Source of the DNA: Candidatus Parcubacteria bacterium
GTDB taxonomy: Bacteria; Patescibacteriota; Patescibacteriia; Patescibacteriales; UBA12465
NCBI GenBank assembly: GCA_037076615.1
Contig: AP029158.1
Span: 261,470 to 325,469, forward strand
Reading direction: 5' to 3'
DNA length: 64,000 nt
Shown: piece by piece, positions 2 through 59,442 of the stretch
How positions within the stretch are numbered: the stretch's first letter is position 1
Layout: each line of letters begins with the position of its first letter
The notes under the pieces: generated by a model
Databases searched by the model: none
What the model was told of the DNA's origin: nothing
The model's input: only the letters and a program-made list of their open reading frames with translations
Made by a program: the position numbers and the translations under genes

Positions 2-622
2 GGGCCGGAAGTCTTTGCTGATTATGTGGCCGCTTTCGGTTTTGGCGCGAGAACCGGTATTGAATTAAGCGGTGAAGCTTTTGGTGATATTAATAATTTA
101 AAACAAAAAAAGATTAAAGATATTGATGCCGCCGTCGCCTCTTTTGGCCAAGGCCTAGCGGTGACTCCTTTACAAATGTTATCTTCTTATCAGGTCTTTG
201 CTAACGATGGTTATCTGATGAAGCCTTATATTGTTAAAGAGATTCGTCGCCCCGATGGTAAAGTCGAAGTTACCAGTCCGGTTCGTCAGCGCCAAGTTAT
301 TTCCGCGAAAACCGCGACCACTATTTTGGGCATGCTTGGCAATGTGGTGGTCACCGGGCATTCTAAAAAAGCGGACATCCCTGGTTATTATATTGGCGGT
401 AAAACTGGGACGGCGCAAATTGCTGTTAATGGTCAGTATGTAACTGGGCGCTATAATCACACTTTTGTGGGTATTGCGCCGATTGATGAACCTCGCTTTG
501 TCTTATTGACCAGAATTGACAGCCCCGAAGGAGTGCAGTACGCTGAAGGTTCGGCTTTACCATTATGGACAGATGTGGCCAAATTTATGCTTCAATATTA
601 TGAAGTCCCTAAGAGCAAATAA
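2..622 (+). CDS. Penicillin-binding protein, transpeptidase domain (C-terminal fragment; 5' end lies left of the window)
   Basis: The frame stays open back to base 2 (GPEVFADYVAAFGFG...). FGQG..TPLQ and GGKTGTAQ (KTG box) are typical of class B PBP/FtsI transpeptidases. It sits directly upstream of murF, as in dcw clusters. Confidence 0.85.
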   Translation, partial: GPEVFADYVAAFGFGARTGIELSGEAFGDINNLKQKKIKDIDAAVASFGQGLAVTPLQMLSSYQVFANDGYLMKPYIVKEIRRPDGKVEVTSPVRQRQVISAKTATTILGMLGNVVVTGHSKKADIPGYYIGGKTGTAQIAVNGQYVTGRYNHTFVGIAPIDEPRFVLLTRIDSPEGVQYAEGSALPLWTDVAKFMLQYYEVPKSK

Positions 623-633
623 TAATTAATTAT

Positions 634-1920
634 ATGCGGACGCTAGTGAAGAAAAGTTTAAAGTTTTTAGCCAAGCGGATTTTAGCGAAATACCGTCCTC
701 AGTTGGTGGGGATTACCGGCAGTGTTGGTAAAAGCAGTGCTAAAGAAGCAGTCTACCAAGTCCTGGCGAGCGAGTTTAGGGTGCGAGCGACGGCAAAAAA
801 TTATAATAATGAGTTGGGTGTGCCTCTAACAATTATTGGTCGAGAGTCCGGTGGACGTTCCGCTAAGGAATGGCTGAGAATCTTTTTCTATGCCTTAGGC
901 TTACTACTAAGGCGGCGGTCAGATTACCCGGAGATTTTAATTTTAGAATTAGGAGTGGATCACCCTGGTGATATGACCTATCTCTGTTCCATCGTTAGTC
1001 CGGAGGTGGGCCTAGTAACCGCCGTTTCCTACGCGCACCTCGAGTTTTTTGGCACTATTAATAACATTAAAAAAGAGAAGCAATTTTTAATTGAGCGCGT
1101 TAATAACAAGGGTTTATCAATTTTAAACTACGATAATGAGCTCGCCAGAGAAATGATGTCCGCTAGTCGGGCCCGGGTGCTTACTTATGGTTTAAATGAG
1201 AAGGCTGATTTAAGGGCGCAAGATATTGTTTATAATTTTGAAAAAGGTGATTACGATTTATCTGGGGTCCATTTTAAATTAAGTTATGACGGCGCGATCG
1301 TGCCGGTGTTTATGAAAAATGTTTTATCGGAGCCCGCTCTTTATGCAGCTTTGGCCGGTGCGGCCGTTGGTTTACACTTCAAGCTTAATTTAGTTAATAT
1401 TGCCGAGGCCTTAAATGATTTTAATTTGCCGCCTGGGCGCATGAACTTACTGGCGGGTCTCAACCATAGTTTTGTTATTGATGATACTTATAACGCTTCT
1501 CCAGATGCGGCCGTGGCCGCCTTAGATATTTTAGGACGTTTGCAGGTGGCGCCGGCTAGTAAAAAGTATGCGATCTTAGGCGATATGCGTGAAATTGGGG
1601 ACTTTACTGAAGATGGCCACCGCTTAGTCGGCAAAAAAGCCGCCGCCGCTGGTGTTTATCAATTGCTGGTGGTGGGCGATTGTGCTCAGTTTATTAAAGA
1701 AGGTGCTCTAGAGACCGGATTAGCCGCCGAAAAAATTAAACATTTTACTAACAATCAGGAGGTAATTGATTTTATTAGCCCCTTAATTACTTTTGGAGAT
1801 GTTATTTTAGTCAAAGGTTCGCAGGCGATGCGCCTCGAGGGAATTGTCAAAGCTATTATGGCCGAACCTGAGCGGGCCGGCGAGTTATTAGTACGCCAGG
1901 GGCCAGAATGGCGCCAATAA
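634..1920 (+). CDS. murF: UDP-N-acetylmuramoyl-tripeptide--D-alanyl-D-alanine ligase
   Basis: Mur ligase P-loop GITGSVGKSS. The central and C-terminal Mur ligase regions carry DDTYNASP and VLVKGS. Length is 428 aa and it is adjacent to the PBP gene. Confidence 0.9.
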   Translation: MRTLVKKSLKFLAKRILAKYRPQLVGITGSVGKSSAKEAVYQVLASEFRVRATAKNYNNELGVPLTIIGRESGGRSAKEWLRIFFYALGLLLRRRSDYPEILILELGVDHPGDMTYLCSIVSPEVGLVTAVSYAHLEFFGTINNIKKEKQFLIERVNNKGLSILNYDNELAREMMSASRARVLTYGLNEKADLRAQDIVYNFEKGDYDLSGVHFKLSYDGAIVPVFMKNVLSEPALYAALAGAAVGLHFKLNLVNIAEALNDFNLPPGRMNLLAGLNHSFVIDDTYNASPDAAVAALDILGRLQVAPASKKYAILGDMREIGDFTEDGHRLVGKKAAAAGVYQLLVVGDCAQFIKEGALETGLAAEKIKHFTNNQEVIDFISPLITFGDVILVKGSQAMRLEGIVKAIMAEPERAGELLVRQGPEWRQ

Positions 1921-1943
1921 ATTTTCAATTATTTTCTTTAAAA

Positions 1944-1966
1944 ACCGTCACTAATGGCGGTTTTTT
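1944..1966 (+). terminator. Rho-independent terminator after murF
   Basis: 7-bp stem accgtca/tggcggt (one G-U pair), 4-nt loop, followed by TTTTTT. Confidence 0.6.
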
Positions 1967-1979
1967 AGAGGTTTTTGGC

Positions 1980-2008
1980 TTGCTTATTGAAAAAGTCTGA
2001 CTTATAAT
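1980..2008 (+). promoter_or_regulatory. Sigma-70-type promoter candidate for the rfbD operon
   Basis: TTGCTT - 17 nt - TATAAT, located 28 nt upstream of the ATG at 2037. Confidence 0.45.
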
Positions 2009-2036
2009 AAATCCAGTTGGTTGTTAATAATTATTT

Positions 2037-2894
2037 ATGAAAATTTTGATTATTGGTAGTCGAGGCGCGCTCGGACAGCAGTTAAGTCGGGTTTTATCGG
2101 TGGATCACGAATTGGTGGGGTGGGACTTTCCGGAAGTAACTTTGACTGATCTAAAATCTTTACCGGCAAAATTAGAAATTTTAAAACCGGATTTGATTAT
2201 AAACGCCGCCGCGTATAATATGGTTGATAAATGCGAACAGGATGAAGCGGAAAAAGAATTAGCTTTTACTTTAAACGAATCTTTACCAAAAACTTTAGCG
2301 ACTTTTTGTGCGGCTAATAAAATTGTTTTGATTCACTATTCCACTGATTATGTTTTTAGTGGTGCGGGCGAACAAGAATTGAATGAGGCCGCTCAACCAG
2401 CGCCAATTAATGTTTATGGAGCTAGTAAGGCGGCCGGGGAGCAAGCGGTGGTTAGCACTATTGGTCTCGATTATTACTTAATTCGAACTTCGAAATTGTT
2501 CGGGCCCAAAGGTGATAGTCCTTTTGCTAAAAATTCTTTTTTTGCGACCATGAAAAAATTGATCGAGGAAAAAACAGTTTTAGAAGTGGTTGATGATGAG
2601 CGGAGCTGCTTCACTTATACGCCTGATTTAGCCGCTGCTACGGCCACCCTCATTACTGAAAAATACCCAGTCGGCATTTATCATCTAACTAATCCGCCGG
2701 CGGCGACCTGGTATGAAGGAGTTGTAGCTTTAAAAGAATTAGTGGCTTTAACGGTGGAAGTTTTACCAATCACCGGGGCAAATTTAGAGCGCCCGGCGAA
2801 ACGGCCGGCTGACTCCGCTTTGATTAATACAAAATTTCCCCCCCTGCGAGATTATCGAGAGGCTTTAAAAGAGTATTTAAATAATTTTCTATGA
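2037..2894 (+). CDS. rfbD: dTDP-4-dehydrorhamnose reductase
   Basis: N-terminal Rossmann ILIIGSRGALG, STDYVF, and YGASK (YxxxK catalytic motif). Its stop overlaps the next gene in an ATGA. Confidence 0.85.
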   Translation: MKILIIGSRGALGQQLSRVLSVDHELVGWDFPEVTLTDLKSLPAKLEILKPDLIINAAAYNMVDKCEQDEAEKELAFTLNESLPKTLATFCAANKIVLIHYSTDYVFSGAGEQELNEAAQPAPINVYGASKAAGEQAVVSTIGLDYYLIRTSKLFGPKGDSPFAKNSFFATMKKLIEEKTVLEVVDDERSCFTYTPDLAAATATLITEKYPVGIYHLTNPPAATWYEGVVALKELVALTVEVLPITGANLERPAKRPADSALINTKFPPLRDYREALKEYLNNFL

Positions 2895-3616
2895 AAGGAA
2901 TAATCTTGTCTGGCGGTAGCGGTACTCGTCTTCGCCCTTTAACAAAAATAACTAGTAAGCAATTGCTACCGATTTATGATCGGCCGATGATTTATTACCC
3001 TTTAAACACTTTAATTAAGGCAGGGATTAAAGAAATTTTAATCATTGTTGCTCCCGAGCGCGCCGGCGATTACTTAAATCTTTTAGGTAGCGGTCAGCAA
3101 TGGGGAGTGAAGCTGACTTACGAAATTCAGGACGAGCCCAAAGGTTTAGCGCAAGCCTTTTTAATTGGTGAGAATTTTATTGATGATGATAATGTCGCGC
3201 TCATTTTAGGCGATAATATTTTTGAAGATGATTTGGCGGCCGAAATAAAAAATTTTTCCGGCGGCGCCAAAATATTTGCCAAGTCCGTTCCTGATCCGGA
3301 ACGTTTCGGCGTAGTTAAATTTAATGATCGTCAGGAGGCGGAAAAACTGGTGGAAAAACCAAAAGAATTTTTAAGCTCTTATGCGGTTACTGGTTTATAT
3401 GTCTGCGATTCGCGCGCGGCAGAATTTGCCAAAGAAATAAAGCCGAGCGACCGCGGGGAATTAGAGATTGTTGATGTCTTGAATAAATATTTAGAAAAAA
3501 ATGAATTAACGGTGGCCTCAGTTAGTGGTGAATGGTTAGACGCCGGCACTTTTGATAGCCTGCTTAAAGCGCAAATTTTGGCTAAAGACCATTTAACAAA
3601 AAACATGATTATCTAA
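2891..3616 (+). CDS. Sugar-phosphate nucleotidyltransferase, short glucose-1-phosphate thymidylyltransferase-like form
   Basis: MKGIILSGGSGTRLRPLT signature (GxGTRLxPxT) and a YGVV-like region FGVVKF. At 241 aa it is shorter than classical RmlA. Confidence 0.75.
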   Translation: MKGIILSGGSGTRLRPLTKITSKQLLPIYDRPMIYYPLNTLIKAGIKEILIIVAPERAGDYLNLLGSGQQWGVKLTYEIQDEPKGLAQAFLIGENFIDDDNVALILGDNIFEDDLAAEIKNFSGGAKIFAKSVPDPERFGVVKFNDRQEAEKLVEKPKEFLSSYAVTGLYVCDSRAAEFAKEIKPSDRGELEIVDVLNKYLEKNELTVASVSGEWLDAGTFDSLLKAQILAKDHLTKNMII

Positions 3617-3618
3617 TT

Positions 3619-4590
3619 ATGAAACTAGCGGTGGGTTTTATCACTTTTAATAGCGCGACGGCCATTTATTTGCCCTATTTTTTAGATAGCTTATTTAAAG
3701 CGTTGACCGCTTGGCCTGAAGAAAGTTTAAAGATTTTGGCAATTGATAATAGCGACGAGGAGGATAACCATAACCAAGATTATGTGGCTGAGTTTATCAA
3801 TCGCACCCAGGCGCTAATTGATTTTGAGTGGTCCGGAGTAAATCTTGGTTTTTCTAAAAGTTATAATCGGATGATTAGTAAGGCTGCCGACTGGGGGGCT
3901 GATTATTTTTTAATGATTAATCCTGATACCGTGATTGACCCCGAAGCTATTAATTTATTAGTGGCTGCTTTAGAAGTTAATCAGGGCTGGGGGTCAGTCG
4001 CTCCGAAAATTAAACGCTGGGATTTTGAAAAATTACAACTCACTAATTATCTTGACAGCTGTGGTCTGAAAATGGGCACCGGTTTACACTTTTTTGATTT
4101 AGGTCAAGGTGAATTAGATGAAAAACAATATGATCGGGCCGAAATTTTGGGCCCCTCGGGGGCGGCGGCCTTATTTAGAATGACAGCGTTAACCGCCGTT
4201 AAAGAAGCGACCGGTTATTTAGATGAGCGCTTTTTTATGTATAAAGAAGACTGTGATTTAGCTTATCGCTTAAATAAGGCTGGCTGTCCCTGCCATCTTG
4301 TGCCCGCGGCTCTTGTTTATCATGACCGAACAGTGGCGACTCCCGGCCGGGGTTTTAAAGACCGCCTAGCTTCACGCCGCGCGCGCAGCCGGAAGGTGCG
4401 CTCTTGGTCTTTTATAAATCAGCATTTATTATTTTTTAAACATTGGTCATATCAAGAAGCAAAAGACAAACTAATTATCATCTCCAAGCTTTTAAAAATG
4501 GCTATTTGGGTTCTTATTTTTGAACCTTTTTTACTTAAAGATTACAAGAAAATTAATGAATTGCGCCGAGTGCCAACCAACTTCCACTAA
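3619..4590 (+). CDS. Glycosyltransferase family 2 (rhamnosyltransferase-like)
   Basis: N-terminal GT-A fold (VGFITFN, AIDNSD). MINPDT is a DxD-equivalent and YKEDCDLAYR is an ED motif. It is coupled to the rfb genes. Confidence 0.8.
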   Translation: MKLAVGFITFNSATAIYLPYFLDSLFKALTAWPEESLKILAIDNSDEEDNHNQDYVAEFINRTQALIDFEWSGVNLGFSKSYNRMISKAADWGADYFLMINPDTVIDPEAINLLVAALEVNQGWGSVAPKIKRWDFEKLQLTNYLDSCGLKMGTGLHFFDLGQGELDEKQYDRAEILGPSGAAALFRMTALTAVKEATGYLDERFFMYKEDCDLAYRLNKAGCPCHLVPAALVYHDRTVATPGRGFKDRLASRRARSRKVRSWSFINQHLLFFKHWSYQEAKDKLIIISKLLKMAIWVLIFEPFLLKDYKKINELRRVPTNFH

Positions 4591-4644
4591 ACACTTGACT
4601 AATATAATATAATATGCTAAATTGGGGCTAATATTTATTGAATT

Positions 4645-4666
4645 AAAGTCTTAAAAAGACTTTTTT
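4645..4666 (+). terminator. Rho-independent terminator after the GT2 gene
   Basis: Stem aaagtctt/aagacttt, 3-nt loop, then a T-run. Confidence 0.5.
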
Positions 4667-4742
4667 AAAAAATATTTTTTAGACCTTTTCTGGTCTTAAG
4701 TGGGGGCCTAGATAGTTATAATTAAGGGATAATTTTTTTAAT

Positions 4743-5795
4743 ATGGAAAATATTCTCGAAAAAATCGTTAAAGAACAAAAACAAGAAGAACTGGAAAAAC
4801 TGAATGCGATCAAAATCGTGGACAGTTTGTTTGACGAATTACCGGAGCGAGAATCTGATGTTTTGTCACGGCGCTATGGTTTGCGTGGTGGTCGCGGTGA
4901 GACTTTGGAAAAAATTGGACAAACACATAATTTAACCCGCGAGCGGGTTAGGCAAATCGAATCAGCGAGCGTGAAAAAAATTAAAAAACTGGAAAAGATT
5001 GATTCCTGTTTAAGCTCTTTTAAAGAAGCGGTTTCGGAATTAATTAAACGTCATGGAGGCCTACTTAATCGTGAATACTTATTAGATATTCTAACGGTTT
5101 ATGCTTTAGAATTGGGCGGCGAAAATTGCCGGGAACTTGATTCGGAGATGAAAGAAGTTTATCGCAATCATGCGGACTTTTTGATTTCTAAGCTCTTGGA
5201 AGATGAGATTGAAATTGTTAAAAAATCCGATCGTTTTGTCGTCTCTTATAAATTAAAATCCGCAGAAACCAGAGCTTTAGAGGAGTTGGCTGATGATTTA
5301 TTAAGTAAAGTTTCTCATTTAAGCGAGACAATGCCGACGGCCGACTTATTAGAATTAATTAAGAGTTTGGACGCTTACAATCGTTATCAAGGTGAAATCC
5401 GCCGTGAAGAAGATTTAGACGTGACGCCAATCTTTAAGAGTAAAATTTTCCCCGACCAGGGTGAGCTGATTAATTCCAATAAAGTTTTGTATGGCTTGTT
5501 GCGTGCGGTCCGCGGCGTGGCCCGAAATAATTTCGGTTATTGGGGCTCAACCGCTTCGCATGAAATCCGACCCAAGACGGTCAATGATAAAATCTATTTA
5601 ATTTTAAAGAATGCCGGACACCCCTTACATTTTACCGAAATCGCTCAAAAAATTAATGAAGTGAAGTTTGATAAAAAAACCGCTAACCCCGCGACCGTGC
5701 ACAATGAATTAATTTTAGATAGTCGTTACGTTCTAACGGGTCGAGGTCGCTATGGTTTAAAGGAGTGGCAAGAAGTTCCGGTTGAGAAAATATAA
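4743..5795 (+). CDS. Sigma-70 region-4-only protein with a C-terminal HARE-HTH-like winged helix
   Basis: LPERESDVLSRRYGL...ETLEKIGQTHNLTRERVRQIESASVKKIKKL matches the sigma-70 region 4.2 HTH. Only about 30 aa precede it, so there is no region 2 or 3. The C-terminus KIYLILKNAGHPLHFTEIAQKI...GRGRYGLKEW resembles the HARE-HTH of RNAP delta. Confidence 0.6.
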   Translation: MENILEKIVKEQKQEELEKLNAIKIVDSLFDELPERESDVLSRRYGLRGGRGETLEKIGQTHNLTRERVRQIESASVKKIKKLEKIDSCLSSFKEAVSELIKRHGGLLNREYLLDILTVYALELGGENCRELDSEMKEVYRNHADFLISKLLEDEIEIVKKSDRFVVSYKLKSAETRALEELADDLLSKVSHLSETMPTADLLELIKSLDAYNRYQGEIRREEDLDVTPIFKSKIFPDQGELINSNKVLYGLLRAVRGVARNNFGYWGSTASHEIRPKTVNDKIYLILKNAGHPLHFTEIAQKINEVKFDKKTANPATVHNELILDSRYVLTGRGRYGLKEWQEVPVEKI

Positions 5796-5824
5796 AACAA
5801 AATTTAGCTTAAAAATAAAAGTGA

Positions 5825-5855
5825 AAACGCCTCTGGTAGGCGTTTTTATTTTTGG
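5825..5855 (+). terminator. Rho-independent terminator
   Basis: Stem aaacgcct/aggcgttt with a 5-nt loop, followed by TTTTTATTTTT. Confidence 0.6.
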
Positions 5856-5877
5856 GGAGATATGGTAAAATAGGGCT

Positions 5878-7413
5878 ATGAATATTGAGATTGACACCTC
5901 ACGTTTGGATTATTTTTTTGCGGCCGATTTTGGTGAAATGATGTGGCTTTTTTTTGCCAACGTTGGTTGGATTATTTTGGCGATCTTTTTTCTTTTAGGG
6001 GTTCGGGAAATTTATCTTTTTTATATTCAAACTAAATTTGCCAAAGGTTTGAAGTATGTCTTATTGGCGGTTGATGTTCCTCGAGGTAATGCCCAATCGC
6101 CGAAGGCCGTGGAAAATCTTTTTACTTATTTAGGCGGAGCTCATGGCTCGGTAAGTTTTTATGAAAAATGGTTTGAGGGGCGCTTTCAGCAAGCGTTTAG
6201 TTTTGAAATTATCGGTATTGATGGCTACACGCAATTTGCTATTCGCACTCCCGTCGAGCAACGCTTTCTTTTAGAATCGGCAATTTATTCACAGTATCCC
6301 GATGCGGAAATAAGTGAGATTGATGATTATACTCCGAATGTTCCTAATCGTTTTCCTGATGACGAGTGGGATCTCTGGGGTGGCGAATTTATTTTAAGCG
6401 CTCCTGACGCTTATCCGATTAAGCTTTATTCGGAATTTGAGTCCATGCAAGGGGAACCGGAAGAGCGCTTTAAAGACCCAATGGCTAGTTTAATGGATTT
6501 AACTAGCTCTTTAAATAAGGGCGAACAACTGTGGTTGCAATTTATTGTGATTCCCACAGATTTTGCTTGGGTGAAGCGTTCCGATGCCGAGGTTGATAAA
6601 ATTTTAGGGAAGACACCTAAGACTAAACAAGGGCTATTTATGAGTTTCTTGATTTGGTTAGGTGAGCTTAGTGAACAAGTTTTTGCTATTTGGAAGGATA
6701 TTAAACCGAAAGAAGAAAAAAAGGCACTTTCCATGATGGAACTAACGCCTAAGAAAATAAAACAAATTGAAGGTGTTCAGAATAAAGCTTCAAAACTCGG
6801 GTTTGGTTTTAAGATGCGGGTGATTTGTATTGGTCGCAAAGGTATTTTTAATAAGGGGAAAATGGTTTCCGGTCTGGTTGGTTGGGTCAAGCAATTTACG
6901 GCCTTGGATTTAAATGGCTTTAAACCGGATATGAAAGTAACGGCGACTAAAACGGCTTATTTTAGAAAAGATGCGCGTCTCGTAACCAAGAAGAACATTA
7001 TCATGCAAAATTATGTTAACCGATCTCTTGCTGGGCGCCCGCCGTCAATTTTGAATATTGAAGAGCTGGCGACGCTCTGGCATTTTCCTTTAGATGCAGT
7101 CGTTAAGGCGCCGTTAATCCAAAAGGCGCCGGGACGAAAATCCGATGCTCCGGCCGCACTGCCGCTCGCCGATGATATCTCTAACACTCAAGCGCCACCA
7201 CCAGATATTTTTAGTGGTCTAACCAAGAAGAAAGAGCAGCCGACTTCAGAAAAAACAGTTGCTGAAAATAATAGTGCTGTGGTTGGAGATGATCGTTTTT
7301 GGTTGGAACCGAGCGGTCCGGCTCAGAATAATTTTTATCAACACGCTCCAAAAACAGCGGTCGAAAAATTGAGCGATACGGCTGAGCCACCGGCCGATTT
7401 ACCTTTTGTTTAA
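5878..7413 (+). CDS. Hypothetical two-TM membrane protein with a large soluble domain
   Basis: 511-aa ORF with N-terminal hydrophobic helices (MMWLFFANVGWIILAIFFLLGV). No Walker A is visible. It has an ELATLWHFP motif and a Pro/Ala-rich tail, and it is first in a tightly packed operon. Confidence 0.7.
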   Translation: MNIEIDTSRLDYFFAADFGEMMWLFFANVGWIILAIFFLLGVREIYLFYIQTKFAKGLKYVLLAVDVPRGNAQSPKAVENLFTYLGGAHGSVSFYEKWFEGRFQQAFSFEIIGIDGYTQFAIRTPVEQRFLLESAIYSQYPDAEISEIDDYTPNVPNRFPDDEWDLWGGEFILSAPDAYPIKLYSEFESMQGEPEERFKDPMASLMDLTSSLNKGEQLWLQFIVIPTDFAWVKRSDAEVDKILGKTPKTKQGLFMSFLIWLGELSEQVFAIWKDIKPKEEKKALSMMELTPKKIKQIEGVQNKASKLGFGFKMRVICIGRKGIFNKGKMVSGLVGWVKQFTALDLNGFKPDMKVTATKTAYFRKDARLVTKKNIIMQNYVNRSLAGRPPSILNIEELATLWHFPLDAVVKAPLIQKAPGRKSDAPAALPLADDISNTQAPPPDIFSGLTKKKEQPTSEKTVAENNSAVVGDDRFWLEPSGPAQNNFYQHAPKTAVEKLSDTAEPPADLPFV

Positions 7414-7417
7414 ATGT

Positions 7418-8617
7418 ATGAAAAGAAAATCTACTCCCCGGCGCACTATCGGCGTCGATGCTCGTTTTTATGGCCCTCTAGGAAAAGGGCTGGGGCGCTA
7501 CACTCAAGAAGTGGTTGATAACGTCATTAGAATTAATCAAGACGAACCGCTAGATTTCGTAATTTTTTTATCACCGGATAATTTTGATGAATTTGTTTGC
7601 CCCAATGAAAATGTGCGCAAAGAATTAATTAAGGCACGTTGGTATTCTTTGGCGGAACAATTTGAGGTGCCTTATAAATGGTGGCGGGCGAAAATTGACC
7701 TGATGCATTTTCCGCATTTTAATGTCCCTTTAATTAAAATGGGGGCATTTGTGGTTACTATCCATGATCTTATTTTGACGAAGTTTCCGACGGTGCGAGC
7801 TACCACCAGGCCCCCTTTTATTTATTGGCTAAAGGATAAGGCTTATCGTTTGGTCATTAGATTAGCGATTAAAAAAGCTAAACAGGTGATTACGGTTTCT
7901 GAATTTACGAAAAAAGATTTAATAGCTCAATTTAAAACGCCGCTGGAAAAAATTATTGTCACCTATGAGGGGGTGGCGAATTTAAGCAAGGGCGGAGATT
8001 CTCTTTTTGTGGCCAAGCTTGATCACCAGCGCACCTTGGAACTTTATAATATTCGCAGCCCTTACTTGTTATATGTTGGTAATGCTTATCCACATAAAAA
8101 TTTAGAAGGTTTAATTAGAGTTTTTGCTGAACTGCGAAAGGGGTATCCGGATTTACGTTTAGTGTTAGTGGGGAAAGAAGATTTTTTCTATGAGCGGGTG
8201 CGTCTTTACGCCCAGCAATTAAATTTATGGCAAAAAGAGAATCATAATACTCCGGTCGTTTTTCCTGGCTATGTCCCCGATGTTGATTTGGAGACCTTGT
8301 TCCAAGAAGCCACTCTCTATGTTTTTCCTTCTCTTTATGAAGGCTTCGGTCTGCCGCCACTTGAAGCGATGGTTTATGGCTGTCCAGTGGCGAGCTCTAA
8401 TTGTGCTAGTATGCCGGAAATATTAGGAGCGGCTGCGGTTTATTTTAACCCTGAGAATGAGAAAGAAATGCGAATGGTGGTTGGTGATCTTTTAAAAAAT
8501 AGAGATGCCAGGGAAGAGTTAAAAGTTTTAGGAAAACAGCAGGTGAAAAAATATAATTGGTGGGAATGTGCTTGTCTAACCTCTGAAATCTACAAACGCT
8601 TACTAATTAAAGGTTAA
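7418..8617 (+). CDS. Glycosyltransferase family 4 (GT-B, GT1 clan)
   Basis: FPSLYEGFGLPPLEAM signature (the E-x7-E region). I moved the start from the TTG at 7406 to the in-frame ATG at 7418, just after the upstream stop. Confidence 0.85.
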   Translation: MKRKSTPRRTIGVDARFYGPLGKGLGRYTQEVVDNVIRINQDEPLDFVIFLSPDNFDEFVCPNENVRKELIKARWYSLAEQFEVPYKWWRAKIDLMHFPHFNVPLIKMGAFVVTIHDLILTKFPTVRATTRPPFIYWLKDKAYRLVIRLAIKKAKQVITVSEFTKKDLIAQFKTPLEKIIVTYEGVANLSKGGDSLFVAKLDHQRTLELYNIRSPYLLYVGNAYPHKNLEGLIRVFAELRKGYPDLRLVLVGKEDFFYERVRLYAQQLNLWQKENHNTPVVFPGYVPDVDLETLFQEATLYVFPSLYEGFGLPPLEAMVYGCPVASSNCASMPEILGAAAVYFNPENEKEMRMVVGDLLKNRDAREELKVLGKQQVKKYNWWECACLTSEIYKRLLIKG

Positions 8618-11056
8618 ATGTTCAAGAGCAGAAAAGCAAAAAAATCTTTATTAACGGGGAAGTATCAGGCCGCCCCGGATTTTTTGCGCGGCCTTGATGA
8701 TGCGCTGCTTAAGGGCACTAAAAGAGATAAAGCCGAGCGACCACGACAGACACGACGGCAATTGGAAAGACAAGCGCGGCGTGATTTAAAATTGTTAGCC
8801 AAAAATGTAAAAACTGCTCAGCGGGAGGTGAAAAAAATAGACCGCGAGTCGTTGCCCAAGAAGTGGACTTTAAGTTATTTTGGCCGTCGCTGGCGAGAGC
8901 GGCAAACTCAGCTTCGCTTGAAATTTTATGAAAAAAAACTTGATGCTCAGCTTCGGAGTGGCGAAAAAAAATTATCTTCCTGGCGCCGAAAAAATTTTAA
9001 AAAACCTTCAAGTTCTCGCCGCCCTTGGTTTTGGCGCATCATTATTTTTGCCGGAGTCCTTTTTTTAGTGACCATTCCTTTCCAAATTTTGGTGCAATTT
9101 AGTGACCGGGATGACTATTCTTTTAAAGACTATCTCTTAAACATCACCAAAAACGCTTGGGGTAATTTAACCAGTGGTGGCGAAGCCCTAACTAATCAAG
9201 ATTGGAATCGAGCCGAAAAAAGTTTTAACCAGGCGGGCGACCAATTTTATCAAGCGGCGGCTGGTTTAAAAATTATTAACGATCGACTCTTATCTTTAGC
9301 GGCTTACACCAGTAATCCGGAATTAAAATTAGTGGCGGAAAGTAAAAAATTATTAAAGATTGGCGCTCTAGGTTCGGAATTAGCGGCGGAGATCACGGCC
9401 GCCCTTAACGGCTGGGATCGCGCCAATGGTGATTGGTTGGTACTACTAACTCAACTTGAGAAACGTGCGGCAACCGCTCAATCTTTAGCCAATAATCTCG
9501 TTTCTGAATTAGAAACAGTAAAGGTGGAAAATTTGCCCGTGGCCTATCAAGCGGATTTTGAAGAAATTGTTGACCAGGCTAAAGCTCTGCCAACGGCTTT
9601 AAGTTTGATTACCGACAATGCCGGTCGCTTTAAAAAATTATTAGGCAGTGGTCAGGATAAGCGGTATTTATTAGTTTTTCAGAATAATAATGAAATTAGA
9701 GGTTCGGGCGGATTTTTAGGAAGTTATGCCTTAATTGATTTTCGTGATGGGCAGATAACCAACTTAGAAGTCCCTGGTGGGGGTTCTTACGATACCGAAG
9801 CGGGGCTTAAATTAAATATTATTGCGCCCGAGCCCTTGTGGTTGGTTAATCCGAAGTGGCATTTTTGGGACGCTAACTGGTGGCCAGATTGGCCAACAAC
9901 AGCGCGCAACCTCAGCTGGTTTTTAGAAAAAAGTGCGGGCCCGACGGTTGATGGCGTGATTTCTTTTACTCCGAGTGTGATTGAAGAATTATTAAAGATT
10001 ACCGGACCGGTTGATTTAAGCGCCGAGTATGGGGTGATAATAACCGCCGAAAACTTTTGGCAAGAAGTACAGTTAACCGCCGAGCGCGATAATTTGGTGG
10101 ACACTAATCCTGATTTAGTCGCGCACTTGCCGATAGGGGAAGAAAATAAACCGAAAAAAATTATTGGTACTTTAGCCGAAGAAATCTTAGAGATCTTACC
10201 GGCAAAAATGAATCAAGATAATTTTCTTAAACTCGCTTCTTTAGCCGAAGAAAGTTTGGCCGCCAAGCAAGTGCTCCTTTATTTTTCTGATCCCGATTTG
10301 CAGGCGATGGTTTCTCAGTGGGGTTGGAGCGGGGAAGTGGCAGCGGCGCCTTACGATTATTTAATGGTGGTTAACACTAATATTGCGGGCGCTAAAACCG
10401 ATCGAATGATTAAAGAAACAATTAGTCAGGAGGTAAACATCAAAGAGGATGGCCGCGTGGTTGTTAATTTAAAAATAAAACGAGAGCACACCGCGCCGCC
10501 GCACACGCCTTTGGTGGGGGTGCGGAATGTTAATTGGCTTCGCGTTTATGTGCCCCACGGCGCTAAACTGCTACAAGCCGGAGGCTTTAGCGCTCCAGAC
10601 GCCGAGTATTTTTCTTATCCGGAGGCCGGCTGGCAAAAGAATGAATTGCTCGCCACTACCGAAGGGCAGTCTTTAGTTGAACCGGTTAGCGGCACTAAAG
10701 TTTATTCGGAGTCCGGTAAGACGGTCTTTGCTAATTGGAGCATGATTGATCCGGGGGAGACAGCTGAGTTGTGGTTCGAATACGAACTACCGCAGCCCGT
10801 GCCCGAATTAAAAGTTGCCGATAATTTATTTCAACGCCTAAATCATTGGCTTAATCCCGAAAAAATAAGTCGCTCCAATTATTCTTTATTGGTGCAAAAA
10901 CAACCGGGAGCGGTTAATGATAACTATCAGCTCCAAGTTAATTGGCCGGATAATTATCATTTAAGTTGGCAAGGTCCGGGCTTAATTGGTGGTCAAGCGC
11001 CGCTGACCCCCTTAACTCGGGATCGCTTTTTTTCTTTAGCTTTTAGTAATTATTAA
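8618..11056 (+). CDS. DUF4012-like membrane-anchored protein
   Basis: A basic N-terminus of about 140 aa, then one TM (WRIIIFAGVLFLVTIPF). DKRYLLVFQNNNEIRGSGGFLGSYALIDF is the core I recall for DUF4012. The ATG directly abuts the upstream stop. Confidence 0.8.
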   Translation: MFKSRKAKKSLLTGKYQAAPDFLRGLDDALLKGTKRDKAERPRQTRRQLERQARRDLKLLAKNVKTAQREVKKIDRESLPKKWTLSYFGRRWRERQTQLRLKFYEKKLDAQLRSGEKKLSSWRRKNFKKPSSSRRPWFWRIIIFAGVLFLVTIPFQILVQFSDRDDYSFKDYLLNITKNAWGNLTSGGEALTNQDWNRAEKSFNQAGDQFYQAAAGLKIINDRLLSLAAYTSNPELKLVAESKKLLKIGALGSELAAEITAALNGWDRANGDWLVLLTQLEKRAATAQSLANNLVSELETVKVENLPVAYQADFEEIVDQAKALPTALSLITDNAGRFKKLLGSGQDKRYLLVFQNNNEIRGSGGFLGSYALIDFRDGQITNLEVPGGGSYDTEAGLKLNIIAPEPLWLVNPKWHFWDANWWPDWPTTARNLSWFLEKSAGPTVDGVISFTPSVIEELLKITGPVDLSAEYGVIITAENFWQEVQLTAERDNLVDTNPDLVAHLPIGEENKPKKIIGTLAEEILEILPAKMNQDNFLKLASLAEESLAAKQVLLYFSDPDLQAMVSQWGWSGEVAAAPYDYLMVVNTNIAGAKTDRMIKETISQEVNIKEDGRVVVNLKIKREHTAPPHTPLVGVRNVNWLRVYVPHGAKLLQAGGFSAPDAEYFSYPEAGWQKNELLATTEGQSLVEPVSGTKVYSESGKTVFANWSMIDPGETAELWFEYELPQPVPELKVADNLFQRLNHWLNPEKISRSNYSLLVQKQPGAVNDNYQLQVNWPDNYHLSWQGPGLIGGQAPLTPLTRDRFFSLAFSNY

Positions 11057-11059
11057 TAT

Positions 11060-13108
11060 ATGTCTATTAAAAAAAATATTCCGGTCACGGCCGGTCCGGC
11101 ACAAAATAATCCCGCGCCCAAAGATTCTAATCCGGGAAGGGTAAAAAAATCCGAGCCTAAGTTTCGGCCGAGATCCGCGCCGCAGCCAACACGGCGTCCT
11201 GTTTTTAGTGCTCATCCGGTGCCCACTAAGGAGCAGGTCAAAAAATTTGAACAGGCCGTTCGCCGCGAGGCCCGCCAAGAAGAAATTGAGGATAATCTCT
11301 CGGAAATTTATCGTGATAAAAAGGGTGAATTGGTTGATGTTTCCGAATTTAAGGCGCGTAAAAAACCAATTTTAATTTTGTTGCTAAAAAATATCTTTGT
11401 CTTAGCGGTTATTGCTTCGCTGGCTTACGCCGCCTTCACTTATTTTTTCAGCCCCAACGCTAATGAGGCGAGAGTTAGTCTAGAGATCACCGCTCCGGAT
11501 AAAGTTAAGGCTGGCGAACCGTTTAACTATTCGATCGTTTACGAAAACCGGAGTGAGTTCTTTTTAAAAAATTTACGTCTTGAACTTAAATATCCAGAAA
11601 GATTCATTCGCGAGGAGGTTAGCGGAGAGCTAACACCGCTGGGCAGTGCCGGTAATTATTTTGAATTACCGGATTTACCGATTGGTGGTCGGGCGGAAAT
11701 AAAAATTTCCGGCCGATTGATTGGTAAACAAGATTCTACGAATATTTTAACCGCCGGTTTAAGTTTCGCACCGCAAGATTTTTCTAGTCAATTTAAAGAG
11801 GAGGCCGTTTCGGCAATTACGATCAGTAGTCTCGGTTTTGATTTAGGCTTCGAGTATAGCAATGCCGTCTTAGTTGGTCAGGAAAATGAAATAGAGCTTA
11901 ACTTTAGTCGTCCTAATGACACCTTCTTAGAAAATTTTGATTTATCTTTTTCCTTCCCGGAAAATATTTCTTTAGTGAACGCCACCACGACCGCTACTAA
12001 TACTCCCATAACTGTTGATAAAAGTAATTTAGTTTGGCGAATAGAAAATTTTGCCACGGCGACCGATGATTATCGTTTGCCAGTTCGCTATAAAGTTAAC
12101 CGCAAAGTTTCTGATAGCCAGGATTTAATTATTCGCCTTAGTCAAAAAGATGAAAAGGGGCAAGAATATGTCTTTTTAGAAAAAGTTATCAACCTGTCAA
12201 TAATGACCAGTAACTTGAATTTAACTTTAAGTGTTAACGGTAATAAAACTGAGGGGGCGGCTAGTTTCGGTGAGACGCTTAAATATTCTTTAAGTTATGT
12301 TAATAAAAGTGATAATGATTTACAGGATATAGTTTTGATGGCAGTTTTAGATGGTGATTGGCTCGACTGGAAATCAATTAAGGAAACTGATGGCGGAAAA
12401 ATAAAAAATAATACGATTATTTGGGCTAAGGAGGAATTGCCCGCTTTGGCGACTTTAGAGCCGGGCGCTAGCGGGGAGCTGAACTTTGAGATTGCTATTC
12501 AAGATTATACCCCCGATAAGTTGGGCGATAAGACAACCATTGCCAGCTATGCTTACTTTACTTTAGGCAGCCAAAGCACCGGCCTTAATGATAGTAAGAG
12601 TAATACGGTGACGACTAAAATAAATAGTGATTTCCAATTTACCGAGCAGGTCTTATATTTTGATGAAAATAATATGCCTGTCGGTAGTGGCCCTTTGCCG
12701 CCGGTAGTTGGTCAAGAAACGGGCGTGCGCGTTTATTGGAACTTGGAAAATAACCTCAATGAATTAAAAGGAGCTCGAGTGGTGGCTGTTTTGCCGGAGT
12801 ATGTTAATTTTGCCGGTGCTCGCAATACTTCTTGGGGGAGCCTTAGTTTTGATCCCGGCACTAGATTTGTTAACTGGGAGCTCGGTGATTTGCCGCTGAG
12901 TACTTATCAAGCGCAAGCCCAATTTGATTTAACCTTGACGCCGACTGAAGATCAGCGCAATACTCTGTTGGTTATTTTGCCGGGGAGCACGGCCCAAGCT
13001 TTAGATGCGGAAACGGGAATTATGCTGACCGCCTCGACTCCAGCAAAAACAACAAAACTAGAAGATGATAGTATCGCTGCTTTAAGTAATTCCGGCTTGG
13101 TTCAATAA
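11060..13108 (+). CDS. Membrane-anchored surface protein with repeated Ig-like (DUF11/CARDB-like) modules
   Basis: Basic N-terminus and a single TM (ILILLLKNIFVLAVIASLAYAAF). It has repeated beta-rich segments such as LEITAPDKVKAGEPFNYSIVYEN and GETLKYSLSYVN. It starts 3 nt after the upstream gene. Confidence 0.7.
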   Translation: MSIKKNIPVTAGPAQNNPAPKDSNPGRVKKSEPKFRPRSAPQPTRRPVFSAHPVPTKEQVKKFEQAVRREARQEEIEDNLSEIYRDKKGELVDVSEFKARKKPILILLLKNIFVLAVIASLAYAAFTYFFSPNANEARVSLEITAPDKVKAGEPFNYSIVYENRSEFFLKNLRLELKYPERFIREEVSGELTPLGSAGNYFELPDLPIGGRAEIKISGRLIGKQDSTNILTAGLSFAPQDFSSQFKEEAVSAITISSLGFDLGFEYSNAVLVGQENEIELNFSRPNDTFLENFDLSFSFPENISLVNATTTATNTPITVDKSNLVWRIENFATATDDYRLPVRYKVNRKVSDSQDLIIRLSQKDEKGQEYVFLEKVINLSIMTSNLNLTLSVNGNKTEGAASFGETLKYSLSYVNKSDNDLQDIVLMAVLDGDWLDWKSIKETDGGKIKNNTIIWAKEELPALATLEPGASGELNFEIAIQDYTPDKLGDKTTIASYAYFTLGSQSTGLNDSKSNTVTTKINSDFQFTEQVLYFDENNMPVGSGPLPPVVGQETGVRVYWNLENNLNELKGARVVAVLPEYVNFAGARNTSWGSLSFDPGTRFVNWELGDLPLSTYQAQAQFDLTLTPTEDQRNTLLVILPGSTAQALDAETGIMLTASTPAKTTKLEDDSIAALSNSGLVQ

Positions 13109-13119
13109 AGTTAATTTTT

Positions 13120-14271
13120 ATGATTGTTTGGAAAAATAAAAATGGCTATCGTCAAGGAAAAATAAAAACGCCCCACGGATTACTCACCACGCCATTTTTT
13201 ATGCCGGATGCGACGAGAGGTGTAGTTAAGCATTTAACAACCAATGATCTCAAGCAAGTGGGAACAAGTGCTTTGGTGGTTAATACTTTCCATCTTTATC
13301 TGCGGCCGGGGATAAAAACAATTGAAAAAGCCGGCGGCTTACATCAATTTATGAGTTATCCGGGCCCCTTATTATCAGATAGTGGCGGCTTTCAGGTGTT
13401 TTCTTTGATTCACCGACGGCCGGGCCACGGCGACATTAATGATCAGCGAGCCCGGTTTAAATCGCCGTTAGATGGCAGTTTTCACGAGCTCACCCCGGAA
13501 AAATCTATCCAAATCCAATTCTCTTTGGGGGTTGATTTCATGATTTGTTTAGATGATTGTCCGCCGAATGAATTTTCGCGACCGGATTTAGAGGCGGCAG
13601 TGGCGCGAACAATTGCTTGGGCGCGTCGAGCTAAAGCGGAATATAATCGGCAAGTTAAAAAAAGAGGTTTAAGTGAAGTAGCGCGACCGCGCTTATTGGC
13701 GGTTATCCAAGGAGGGGTGGATATCGATTTGCGCCAAGCTTGTGCCGCCGCTTTGGTGGAAATCGGTTTTGATGGTTATGGTTTTGGGGCGCGCCCGGTT
13801 GATAAAGAGGGTAATTTTTTAGCGGGTGTGATGGCAGCGACGGCGGCGGCGATTCCCGAAACTAGTTTACGCTTTGCGCTCGGAGTTGGTTTACCAGAAG
13901 ATATTTATCGTGCTTACCTGATGGGCTGGGATATGTTTGACTGCGTGATTCCTACTAGAGAAGGACGGCATGGGAAGTTATTTTCTTTTAAGCCCCGCTT
14001 TAAGGAATTTAAGAAGCCAGCTTCGCGTTCGAAAATAGTGGCGACGGCGCCGGATTTTTACCAAACGACTAATATTTTGCGAGCCGAGTACGCTCATGAT
14101 CAGCGACCAATTAATCCTCAGAGCAATTTTCCTGAGCTAAGAACTTACAGCCGCGCTTACTTACATCATCTTTTTAAGAGCGGAGAACCCTTGGGTCAAC
14201 GTTTGGCTAGTTTAAATAATTTAGAATTTTTTAATGAATTGTTGAATAAACTTAAAGATTTAGCCGATTAA
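13120..14271 (+). CDS. tgt: tRNA-guanine transglycosylase family protein (divergent, no Zn-cysteine motif)
   Basis: TPFFMPDAT, LSDSGGFQV, ICLDDC and DMFDCVIPTREGRHG match TGT catalytic regions. The C-terminal region lacks CxCxxC. Confidence 0.8.
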   Translation: MIVWKNKNGYRQGKIKTPHGLLTTPFFMPDATRGVVKHLTTNDLKQVGTSALVVNTFHLYLRPGIKTIEKAGGLHQFMSYPGPLLSDSGGFQVFSLIHRRPGHGDINDQRARFKSPLDGSFHELTPEKSIQIQFSLGVDFMICLDDCPPNEFSRPDLEAAVARTIAWARRAKAEYNRQVKKRGLSEVARPRLLAVIQGGVDIDLRQACAAALVEIGFDGYGFGARPVDKEGNFLAGVMAATAAAIPETSLRFALGVGLPEDIYRAYLMGWDMFDCVIPTREGRHGKLFSFKPRFKEFKKPASRSKIVATAPDFYQTTNILRAEYAHDQRPINPQSNFPELRTYSRAYLHHLFKSGEPLGQRLASLNNLEFFNELLNKLKDLAD

Positions 14272-32500: not shown

Positions 32501-32856
32501 TGGGGGGCAAGTAGATGATTGCTCGGTTCGCCGAGAGGAAAGTCCGGACTCCTTAAAGGGGCAGTGGATAACGTCCACCAGGGGTAACCCTAGGGAAAGT
32601 GCCACAGAGACAATACTAGTCCGCCCGTTGGCTTCGCCAGCCGGTGGATGAAAGGTGAAAAGAAAGAGGGTGTCGCAAGGCTACCTTTTTCGCTTAGCGG
32701 TGACGCTAAGATCGCGGTAAACCCTGCCTGGAGCAAGGACAAACTCTGTTGCTTTTTAAGTAGCAGAAGAAAAGTGGTCCGCTTGATCGGTTTGGCAACA
32801 AATCGGCTTAGATAAATAATCATCCTAGACAGAATCCGGCTTATCGCTTACCCCCA
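32501..32856 (+). ncRNA. rnpB: RNase P RNA, bacterial type A
   Basis: It carries both conserved P4 strands, GAGAGGAAAGTCCGGACTCC and GACAGAATCCGGCTTAT. The P3 hairpin is CTCGGTTCGCCGAG, and P1 pairs GGGGGGCAAG with CGCTTACCCCC. The ends are approximate, within about 10 nt. Confidence 0.85.
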
Positions 32857-32879
32857 AAATAACTTTTTTAAAACTTTTT

Positions 32880-38112: not shown

Positions 38113-38113
38113 G

Positions 38114-38197
38114 TGCCGCGAGAGGGAATCGAACCCTCATGGGATTGCTCCCACACGAGTTTGAGTCGTGCGCGTCTACCAGTTCCGCCATCACGGC
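38114..38197 (-). tRNA. tRNA-Leu (anticodon CAA), class II with a long variable arm
   Basis: The reverse complement GCCGTGATGGCGGAACTGGTAGACGCGCACGACTCAAACTCGTGTGGGAGCAATCCCATGAGGGTTCGATTCCCTCTCGCGGCA folds as a cloverleaf. The acceptor is 7 bp, the anticodon loop is CUCAAAC, and the T-loop is GGTTCGATTCC. CCA is not encoded. Confidence 0.9.
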
Positions 38198-59362: not shown

Positions 59363-59433
59363 TCGGGGATCGTCTAATGGTAGGACTGCAGGTTCTGGTC
59401 CTGTATATCTGGGTTCGAATCCTAGTCCCCGAG
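59363..59433 (+). tRNA. tRNA-Gln (anticodon CUG)
   Basis: TCGGGGATCGTCTAATGGTAGGACTGCAGGTTCTGGTCCTGTATATCTGGGTTCGAATCCTAGTCCCCGAG folds as a cloverleaf. It has a U1-A72 pair, anticodon loop UUCUGGU and T-loop GGTTCGAATCC. CCA is not encoded, and it lies 17 nt after lysS. Confidence 0.88.
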
Positions 59434-59442
59434 CAAATTTAC

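Follow-up and report, generated by a model that had tools for sequence, protein, structure and literature searches.

What does a sigma-70 domain 4 do in a protein that carries no other part of a sigma factor? The question is raised by a gene in a 64,000-nucleotide stretch of a Candidatus Parcubacteria bacterium genome (contig AP029158.1, positions 261,470 to 325,469 of the forward strand; hereafter the window, whose own numbering is used throughout). In its product a sigma domain 4 is followed by winged helices, and we refer to the gene and the protein as sigma4-WH. A first-pass annotation had described a sigma-70 region 4 joined to a C-terminal HARE-HTH-like domain, with no core-binding or -10-recognition regions and without a characterised function, and our literature search likewise found no study of what such a protein does. 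The family to which it belongs is catalogued but unstudied, and specific to the candidate phyla radiation (CPR, or Patescibacteria). Our favoured explanation, held tentatively, is that the window protein belongs to a family of non-initiating sigma-4 proteins spread across the CPR, that it lacks the last domain (D5) of the typical member, and that it acts as an essential general factor associated with promoter DNA or with RNA polymerase (RNAP). New are the winged-helix nature of the middle of the protein, the variant without D5, and the linkage to DUF8128 and VirD4-like genes with its joint loss of D5 and ATPase.

Results

A complete sigma domain 4 without the rest of a sigma factor

The hmmscan check confirmed the annotated N-terminal region 4: Pfam assigned Sigma70_r4 to residues 30-82 of the window protein (52.8 bits, E 2.8e-14; cut-off 24.1), with helix NLTRERVRQIESASVKKIKKL at residues 63-83. 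The roughly 30 residues ahead of the helix-turn-helix (HTH) are no spacer but align with the first helix of region 4.1, and the sigma domain 4 (D1) is therefore complete. Sigma models of NCBIfam (RpoD, RpoS, SigA, MzaA) aligned by their last 60-90 positions only, to residues 3-97; sequence matches in the PDB were exclusively to sigma region 4, down to E 1e-11; and Foldseek matched D1 to sigma-4 structures with template modelling (TM) scores on target of 0.6-0.9. D1 shares its fold with domain 4 of the group-1 sigma-70 factors (RpoD/SigA), with 36-48% identity to solved sigma-4 structures, and the TRER[IV]RQIE helix and the region 4.1 pattern LxxRExxVLxxR[FY]GL are common to both. The recognition helix of the window protein reads T65-R66-E67-R68-V69-R70-Q71. 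Its residues T65, R66, E67, R68, R70 and Q71 (TRERxRQ) were retained in 126-129 of 129 diverse family representatives, the sample used for all domain and residue counts, and are identical to those of primary sigmas placed in the same alignment. We take them to be the equivalents of sigma70 T583, R584, E585, R586, R588 and Q589, the -35 contacts.

No Pfam match to Sigma70_r1, r2 or r3 was obtained in the window protein even at E<=10, the middle segment included, and the only matches at that threshold were Sigma70_r4 and HARE-HTH. A sigma-70 initiation factor is thus represented by region 4, and neither region 2 nor region 3 with the 3.2 linker was found; no more than about 25 residues lie ahead of region 4.1. 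Because regions 2 and 3 are absent, sigma-style loading onto core RNAP and DNA melting are impossible, and the earlier conclusions that core-binding and -10-recognition regions are lacking and that the protein is not an initiation factor both stood. Unlike the group-1 factors, the window protein is without regions 1.2, 2, 3 and 3.2, and so without beta-prime coiled-coil binding, -10 recognition or melting; the first helix of a winged-helix domain takes the place of their C-terminal tail.

An array of winged helices behind the sigma domain

The HARE-HTH-like domain annotated at the C-terminus was likewise recovered by hmmscan (PF05066, residues 279-342, 33.2 bits, E 6.8e-8; gathering score 25.9). 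We built an AlphaFold2 model of the full window protein with 62 homologues (predicted local distance difference test, pLDDT, 88.9; predicted TM score, pTM, 0.85) and a second model of residues 86-350 alone (pLDDT 91.8). Three helix-strand-helix-helix-strand-strand units were predicted after the sigma-4 helices, at residues 86-171, 177-269 and 280-339, and the corresponding domains are called D2, D3 and D4 below. D2 had the order H-E-H-H-E-E, with pLDDT >90 save in a loop at residues 123-133. When a diverse family alignment was split into domain segments and the segment profiles were compared pairwise, D4 matched D5 (probability 96%, E 4.6e-9), D3 matched D4 (92.9%, E 3.8e-7), D2 matched D5 (91%, E 9.5e-7) and D2 matched D3 (71.5%, E 3.6e-5); hidden Markov models (HMMs) of the family's domains also cross-matched each other's domains in real proteins. 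As judged from profiles and predicted fold, the middle of about 200 residues is a pair of degenerate winged helices homologous to HARE-HTH, D2 being the least certain call, which would make the window protein a sigma domain 4 followed by a three-winged-helix array. The annotation had rightly seen no region 2 signatures in this segment, but the segment is not featureless. A published DPAM parse of SEML1_0294, the orthologue in the saccharibacterium Southlakia epibionticum, lists a tri-helical domain (sigma70 5vt0L) and three winged ones, the second related to delta (7f75L) and the third to ZBP1 (2lnb) (Wang et al. 2023 Table S2, PMC10633639), and agrees independently with the repeat nature of the middle.

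D4 is the most conserved part of the family, with the motifs TVHNELIxDxR[FY] and GRGxYxLxxW. Foldseek placed it beside RNAP delta chains (8x6g_E, 9a6y_A, 2krc, 7f75_L, 6zca_D and 2m4k; probability 0.95-1.0, all E>0.01), and beyond delta the single-domain matches were the Rok DNA-binding domain and the Z-alpha domain of ZBP1 (all E>0.01). The model of residues 86-350 matched, as a whole array, UFL1/DDRGK1, Rpc82, Rpc34, FokI and ESCRT-II (E 0.016-1, TM about 0.2). Like the tandem arrays of Pol III Rpc34/Rpc82, the FokI recognition domain, ESCRT-II and UFL1/DDRGK1, the window protein has head-to-tail winged helices on short linkers, but with weak matches and no sequence relationship the analogy is one of construction only. 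A profile search with residues 86 to the end against PDB sequences gave no real match, and the search of viral structures turned up matches to single domains alone, of the sigma-4 and Rok winged-helix types, with no full-length counterpart. Median charges across the family were +3 for D1, -4 for D2, -1 for D3, +3 for D4 and +4 for D5, and D2 of the window protein has a net charge of -5.

Could the protein nevertheless be a divergent genuine sigma factor, or an orthologue of the delta subunit (RpoE) of Firmicute RNAP? Database names point that way (Prokka 'RpoS', and NCBI 'RNA polymerase subunit delta' for one member), D4 is best matched, by structure and by HMM, by the delta N-terminal domain, and the delta-subunit model TIGR04567 aligned with residues 282-345 at 38.6 bits. 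That score lies below the cut-off of 42, however (the member at locus L004 scored 30.8), and the domain is C-terminal or internal in the sigma4-WH family, whereas it is N-terminal in delta. The acidic disordered tail, the active part of delta, is absent: the window protein ends 8 residues past its HARE-HTH domain without a polyanionic region, and in most members the basic winged helix D5 occupies that place. The family also has sigma-4 and winged-helix domains that delta does not have. A sigma factor is contradicted by the absence of regions 2 and 3, both from the HMM results and from the predicted fold, in which the residues concerned form winged helices. We rejected both identities and regard them as hardly credible.

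A family specific to the candidate phyla radiation

A word-indexed search returned 1,756 relatives. The best 120 of these all had the same two Pfam domains and 338-362 residues, under the names Candidatus Falkowbacteria or Patescibacteria, and the closest named relative among the matches listed was 88% identical to the window protein. An exhaustive HMMER search with residues 86-350 yielded 868 clusters (50% identity) at E<=1e-3 and 584 at E<=1e-10. The phyletic profile that had been proposed as a check gave a uniform answer, all full-length matches bearing an organism name being Patescibacteria. The same held for 16/16 full-length matches in species-representative genomes (Falkow-, Doudna-, Kaiser-, Parcu-, Peregrini- and Saccharibacteria, including the cultivated Nanosynbacter). 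This genome scan used a sigma-4 helix pattern and was dominated by ordinary sigma factors; a metagenome scan used the HARE-HTH helix. The abstract of the 2012 HARE-HTH paper by Aravind & Iyer is said to mention bacterial proteins that mix features of the RNAP alpha subunit and of sigma factors.

The HMMs of D1 to D4 matched the window protein in order (E 2e-31 to 6e-16). Typical members have five domains, D5 being a fourth winged helix that all 16 GTDB loci and most metagenome loci possess. It is absent from the window protein and 15 related loci, a clade of 52-100% identity. Among the 129 representatives Sigma70_r4 was found in 128, HARE-HTH in 127 and regions 2 and 3 in one only. That protein, P0236 (800 residues, a single cluster), consists of a complete sigma factor (regions 2, 3 and 4) fused in frame to a complete five-domain member whose own sigma-4 helix has diverged and reads TRQRIQQ; either a genuine fusion or read-through in the gene call could account for it. 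A relative, P0146 (627 residues), has about seven tandem HARE-HTH domains and no sigma 4; the repeat is able to expand by itself. Isolated sigma-4-like modules may be recurrent in CPR: S. epibionticum also has SEML1_0582, a small 'Sigma70 r4 domain-containing' protein with RecX-like structural neighbours (Wang et al. 2023 Table S2, PMC10633639). Phage proteins of 94-136 residues with little beyond sigma region 4 were seen in BFVD (A0A6J5S254, A0A6J5LJJ3 and A0A6J5LKM7), a further instance of sigma 4 standing alone.

Conserved linkage to DUF8128 and a VirD4-like ATPase

Neighbouring genes were counted in 96 fetched loci, using only those with enough downstream sequence. A DUF8128 gene came next in 62 of 75 loci (49/62 with D5 and 13/13 without), as it does in the window, and in distant CPR it is the only neighbour that persists. 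Its product is predicted, from a reading of the sequence by the positive-inside rule, to have one N-terminal transmembrane helix and to be cytoplasmic in its bulk; it gave no match by phmmer against PDB, nor in local NCBIfam and Pfam scans. A TrwB/VirD4/TraD-like ATPase of the HerA-FtsK superfamily followed downstream in 38 of 44 loci with D5 and in 0 of 10 without, and the ATPase HMM had no match at E<=1 anywhere in the 64-kb window. The joint loss of D5 and ATPase is confined to a single clade and so counts as one evolutionary event. The order sigma4-WH, DUF8128, ATPase is kept across Parcubacteria, Doudnabacteria, Falkowbacteria and other CPR lineages, and in Saccharibacteria (loci L014 and L015) DUF8128 and the ATPase form a single polypeptide. 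DUF8128 and ATPase together (L014:7116-9764, L015:4097-7093, L004:7091-10360) resemble a split coupling protein in a housekeeping context.

The locus is not a mobile element, since its flanks vary by lineage and are housekeeping genes (SecDF, TopA, DprA, elongation factor P, methionyl-tRNA synthetase, phosphoglycerate kinase). A known defence system was considered and rejected: PADLOC matched only the sigma-4 part of MzaA from the MZA defence system, the NCBIfam MzaA model aligned over no more than its positions 632-718 of 726 (61 bits; cut-off 800), no neighbour matched MZA components, and the ATPase matched generic HerA and mad8.

These linkages suggest another main job for the protein, that of a DNA-recognition or substrate-adaptor subunit of a DUF8128 and VirD4-like translocase, in which sigma 4, together with the winged helices, would capture specific DNA for delivery to the membrane motor. 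The conserved gene order, the fusion of DUF8128 and ATPase into one gene after sigma4-WH (a Rosetta-stone link) and the loss of D5 together with the ATPase all speak for it. VirD4-like genes are, moreover, abundant in Patescibacteria and mostly away from virB4: a 2025 survey counted 5,713 in 2,918 genomes, only 148 of them near virB4, and its authors could not rule out exaptation for other functions (PMC12102498). Our literature search found no paper tying these genes to the sigma4-WH protein. TraM/TrwA-type partners of coupling proteins and the gamma domain of FtsK offer likenesses, since in each case an HTH protein that reads sequence has a genetic tie to a membrane-anchored ATPase of the HerA/FtsK superfamily, and the relaxosome accessory proteins and the FtsK gamma winged helix at FtsK-orienting polar sequences (KOPS) would be models for the hand-over of DNA. 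Unlike the conjugation systems, the loci described here have no relaxase, VirB4 or mobile-element context, and their flanks are housekeeping genes. The window's clade, in addition, retains the protein without a nearby ATPase, the co-loss that favours this role is a single event, and for a private DNA site one would not expect the very recognition helix of the primary sigmas. With the essentiality results below, we consider an adaptor role unlikely.

Essentiality of the saccharibacterial orthologue

SEML1_0294 is a 1,050-bp gene with PF04545 and PF05066 (Wang et al. 2023 Table S1, PMC10633639), and the Prokka name RpoS given there is a misnomer. Orthology with the family is supported by its surroundings (DprA, CDP-alcohol phosphatidyltransferase, TopA), which match those of locus L014. 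The gene was flagged as a core family and as Patescibacteria-enriched, and transposon sequencing called it essential at all three time points, with 24 insertions in input DNA falling to 1, 1 and 2 after selection; the calls equal those for RpoD. The adjacent SEML1_0293, the DUF8128-ATPase fusion, was non-essential, with 87-120 insertions (PMC10633639). SEML1_0294 is not discussed in the main text of that study. That essentiality extends to the protein but not to the ATPase indicates a core role independent of the latter. A fully dispensable motor beside an essential protein is not what a translocase adaptor would lead one to expect, nor is it seen in the conjugation partners.

The same data bear on the decoy or anti-sigma-like competitor suggested by the first-pass annotation, which would occupy -35 elements or the beta-flap and block the sigma-A holoenzyme. 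Such a role agrees with an intact sigma 4 in the absence of sigma 2, with the conservation of the residues that read the -35 element, and with the fact that CPR genomes also encode an ordinary RpoD, which has a sigma 4 of its own (L023; SEML1_0063). A purely inhibitory competitor is, however, improbable as an essential, core and Patescibacteria-enriched gene, and it leaves the winged-helix array and the conserved DUF8128 and ATPase neighbourhood unexplained. We consider it very unlikely. The annotation's other suggestions, an RNAP accessory subunit or a reader of the -35 element, stay plausible.

Gene, flanks and transcription signals

The features of the locus are collected in Table 1. The promoter-like site upstream of the gene is weak evidence for a promoter, because shuffled sequence is expected to hold as many such sites as the region does; if it is one, the leader would be about 120 nt long with two small hairpins (window 4595-4742, + strand). 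The RNA fold of 4624-4742 had -24.9 kcal/mol and a weak z = -1.7, and its hairpins could be a terminator of the upstream family 2 glycosyltransferase (GT2) gene or a leader structure. Hairpins on both sides of the gene, as annotated, were thus recovered, the downstream one being the stronger. Its terminator occupies the same position, with differing sequences, in 15/15 loci without D5 and in 34/60 with D5; in the remaining 26 D5-containing loci none was seen, and the gap to DUF8128 is mostly short (4-106 bp). The annotation of the gene as monocistronic is plausible with a terminator at the same place throughout the clade, but the gene is also half of a conserved pair with DUF8128. Within the window, the density of TTGACA in intergenic DNA is about 3 times that in coding DNA (small numbers).

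Table 1. Positions of features in the 64-kb window.
Feature	Position	Strand	Evidence or remark
Cell-envelope gene cluster	26..14271	+	
Promoter-like TTGACT-17-TAAATT with TG ahead of the second hexamer; candidate promoter of sigma4-WH	4595..4623	+	Consensus scan, 9/12 matches
Two small hairpins 5' of the gene (4645-4663 and 4681-4696)	4645..4696	+	RNA fold of 4624-4742
sigma4-WH gene	4743..5795	+	ATG start, 350 aa
D1, complete sigma-70 domain 4 (regions 4.1 and 4.2), aa 1-85	4743..4997	+	Pfam, PDB, Foldseek
D2, putative acidic divergent winged-helix-like domain, aa 86-175	4998..5267	+	AlphaFold2, profile-profile comparison
D3, putative degenerate HARE-HTH-like winged helix with insertion, aa 176-278	5268..5576	+	Profile-profile comparison, HMM cross-matches, AlphaFold2
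D4, HARE-HTH winged helix, aa 279-345	5577..5777	+	Pfam, TIGR04567, Foldseek, invariant columns
Intrinsic-terminator hairpin and T run between sigma4-WH and DUF8128 genes	5816..5854	+	-18.5 kcal/mol, z = -3.0
DUF8128 protein, 511 aa	5878..7413	+	PF26449 in precomputed annotation of orthologous contigs
Bacterial RNase P RNA class A	32503..32859	+	Rfam, 211 bits, full-length match
tRNA-Leu(CAA)	38113..38197	-	
tRNA-Gln(CTG)	59363..59434	+	

An HTH gene directly upstream of possible targets might also be a dedicated repressor or regulator of the DUF8128(-ATPase) genes, essential only through toxic derepression; an essential regulator next to a dispensable target is the pattern that this would predict. 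Strong terminators between the two genes in many lineages argue against it, as do a conservation that is unusually deep (recognition helices near-invariant across CPR, about 60% identity across the clade) and five domains, which far exceed the needs of an operator-binding repressor. On balance such a regulator is distinctly unlikely.

In the window the gene stands in a cell-envelope cluster, preceded by a penicillin-binding protein (PBP) transpeptidase, Mur ligase, RmlD, RmlA and GT2, and followed, after DUF8128, by a family 4 glycosyltransferase (GT4), DUF4012 and a DUF11-repeat protein, then tRNA-guanine transglycosylase. The cluster is syntenic in relatives 60-65% identical, and close relatives keep the full order PBP, Mur ligase, RmlD, RmlA, GT2, sigma4-WH, DUF8128, GT4, DUF4012. 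An Rfam scan of the window gave no match near the sigma4-WH gene. The window has a strong strand bias, with about 48 of 54 large open reading frames (ORFs) on the + strand, and a G+C content of 42%.

Discussion

For the general promoter-DNA or RNAP-associated factor that we favour, the following mechanism is proposed. Sigma 4 would read -35 hexamers of the TTGACA type, to judge from its conserved residues; because the helix has been kept primary-sigma-like across a deep radiation, the common hexamer, and not a private operator, is suggested as the target, and the intergenic density of TTGACA in the window, from small numbers, points the same way. D4, which is basic, and D5 in the members that have it would add contacts to DNA or RNAP, while acidic D2 and D3 may serve as protein-contact or spacer modules. 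The N-terminal domain of delta is an RNAP-binding module, lodged between the shelf and the jaw of beta-prime (PMC7749165). P0236, in which a complete sigma factor and a complete family member share one chain, also counts in favour of the proposal. The protein would further be coupled, in most CPR lineages and probably via D5, to membrane-anchored DUF8128 and the VirD4/TraD-like ATPase, as we infer from gene order, gene fusion and co-loss. This link would amount to a second function that most lineages have kept, and the window's clade would have lost D5 and the neighbouring ATPase and retained the core protein with DUF8128.

Several observations weigh against this explanation. Gene order, the strongest comparative signal, points to the membrane ATPase module and not to RNAP genes, and a search for rpoD adjacency prompted by P0236 found no second sigma-4-bearing ORF within 6 kb in the 16 GTDB loci. 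Part of the beta-flap binding of sigma70 comes from its C-terminal tail (RHPSRSxxLxxYL); this tail is absent from the family alignment, and docking to the beta-flap is therefore doubtful. Simultaneous occupancy of the flap and of the delta site by a compact four-domain protein also seems geometrically unlikely. Structural matches outside sigma 4 were all weak (E>0.01), and DNA or RNAP binding by the sigma4-WH protein is something we infer from sequence. Essentiality, finally, was measured in a different CPR class, on an orthologue with five domains and about 30-40% identity. The window protein shares with the SEML1_0294 family the sigma 4, the winged helices, the HARE-HTH domain and the DUF8128 gene that follows, but typical members have D5 and a VirD4-like ATPase after DUF8128, and the window's clade is without both.

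A more specific form of the general-factor explanation is that the protein supplies a second sigma domain 4 in trans: an essential, lineage-specific, split-off reader of the -35 element that delta-like winged helices would fix to RNAP or to DNA and that, in most lineages, would also tether promoter DNA or transcribing RNAP to the membrane VirD4-like motor. We regard this specific form as unlikely. Were it true, bacteria would have a further class of general transcription factor, new to science and coupled to a translocase of DNA or RNA.

A large part of bacterial diversity belongs to the CPR, in whose genomes very few transcription factors can be recognised. Here is a family assembled from parts of two RNA polymerase subunits that is as essential as RpoD in one genetically tractable species. 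The pattern of gene order, fusion and co-loss supplies concrete candidate partners, and the family might explain the many 'orphan' VirD4-like coupling proteins that Patescibacteria encode at a distance from type IV secretion genes. The role of an isolated sigma 4 that, by its conserved residues, appears competent for the -35 element bears on promoter reading in a major bacterial branch.

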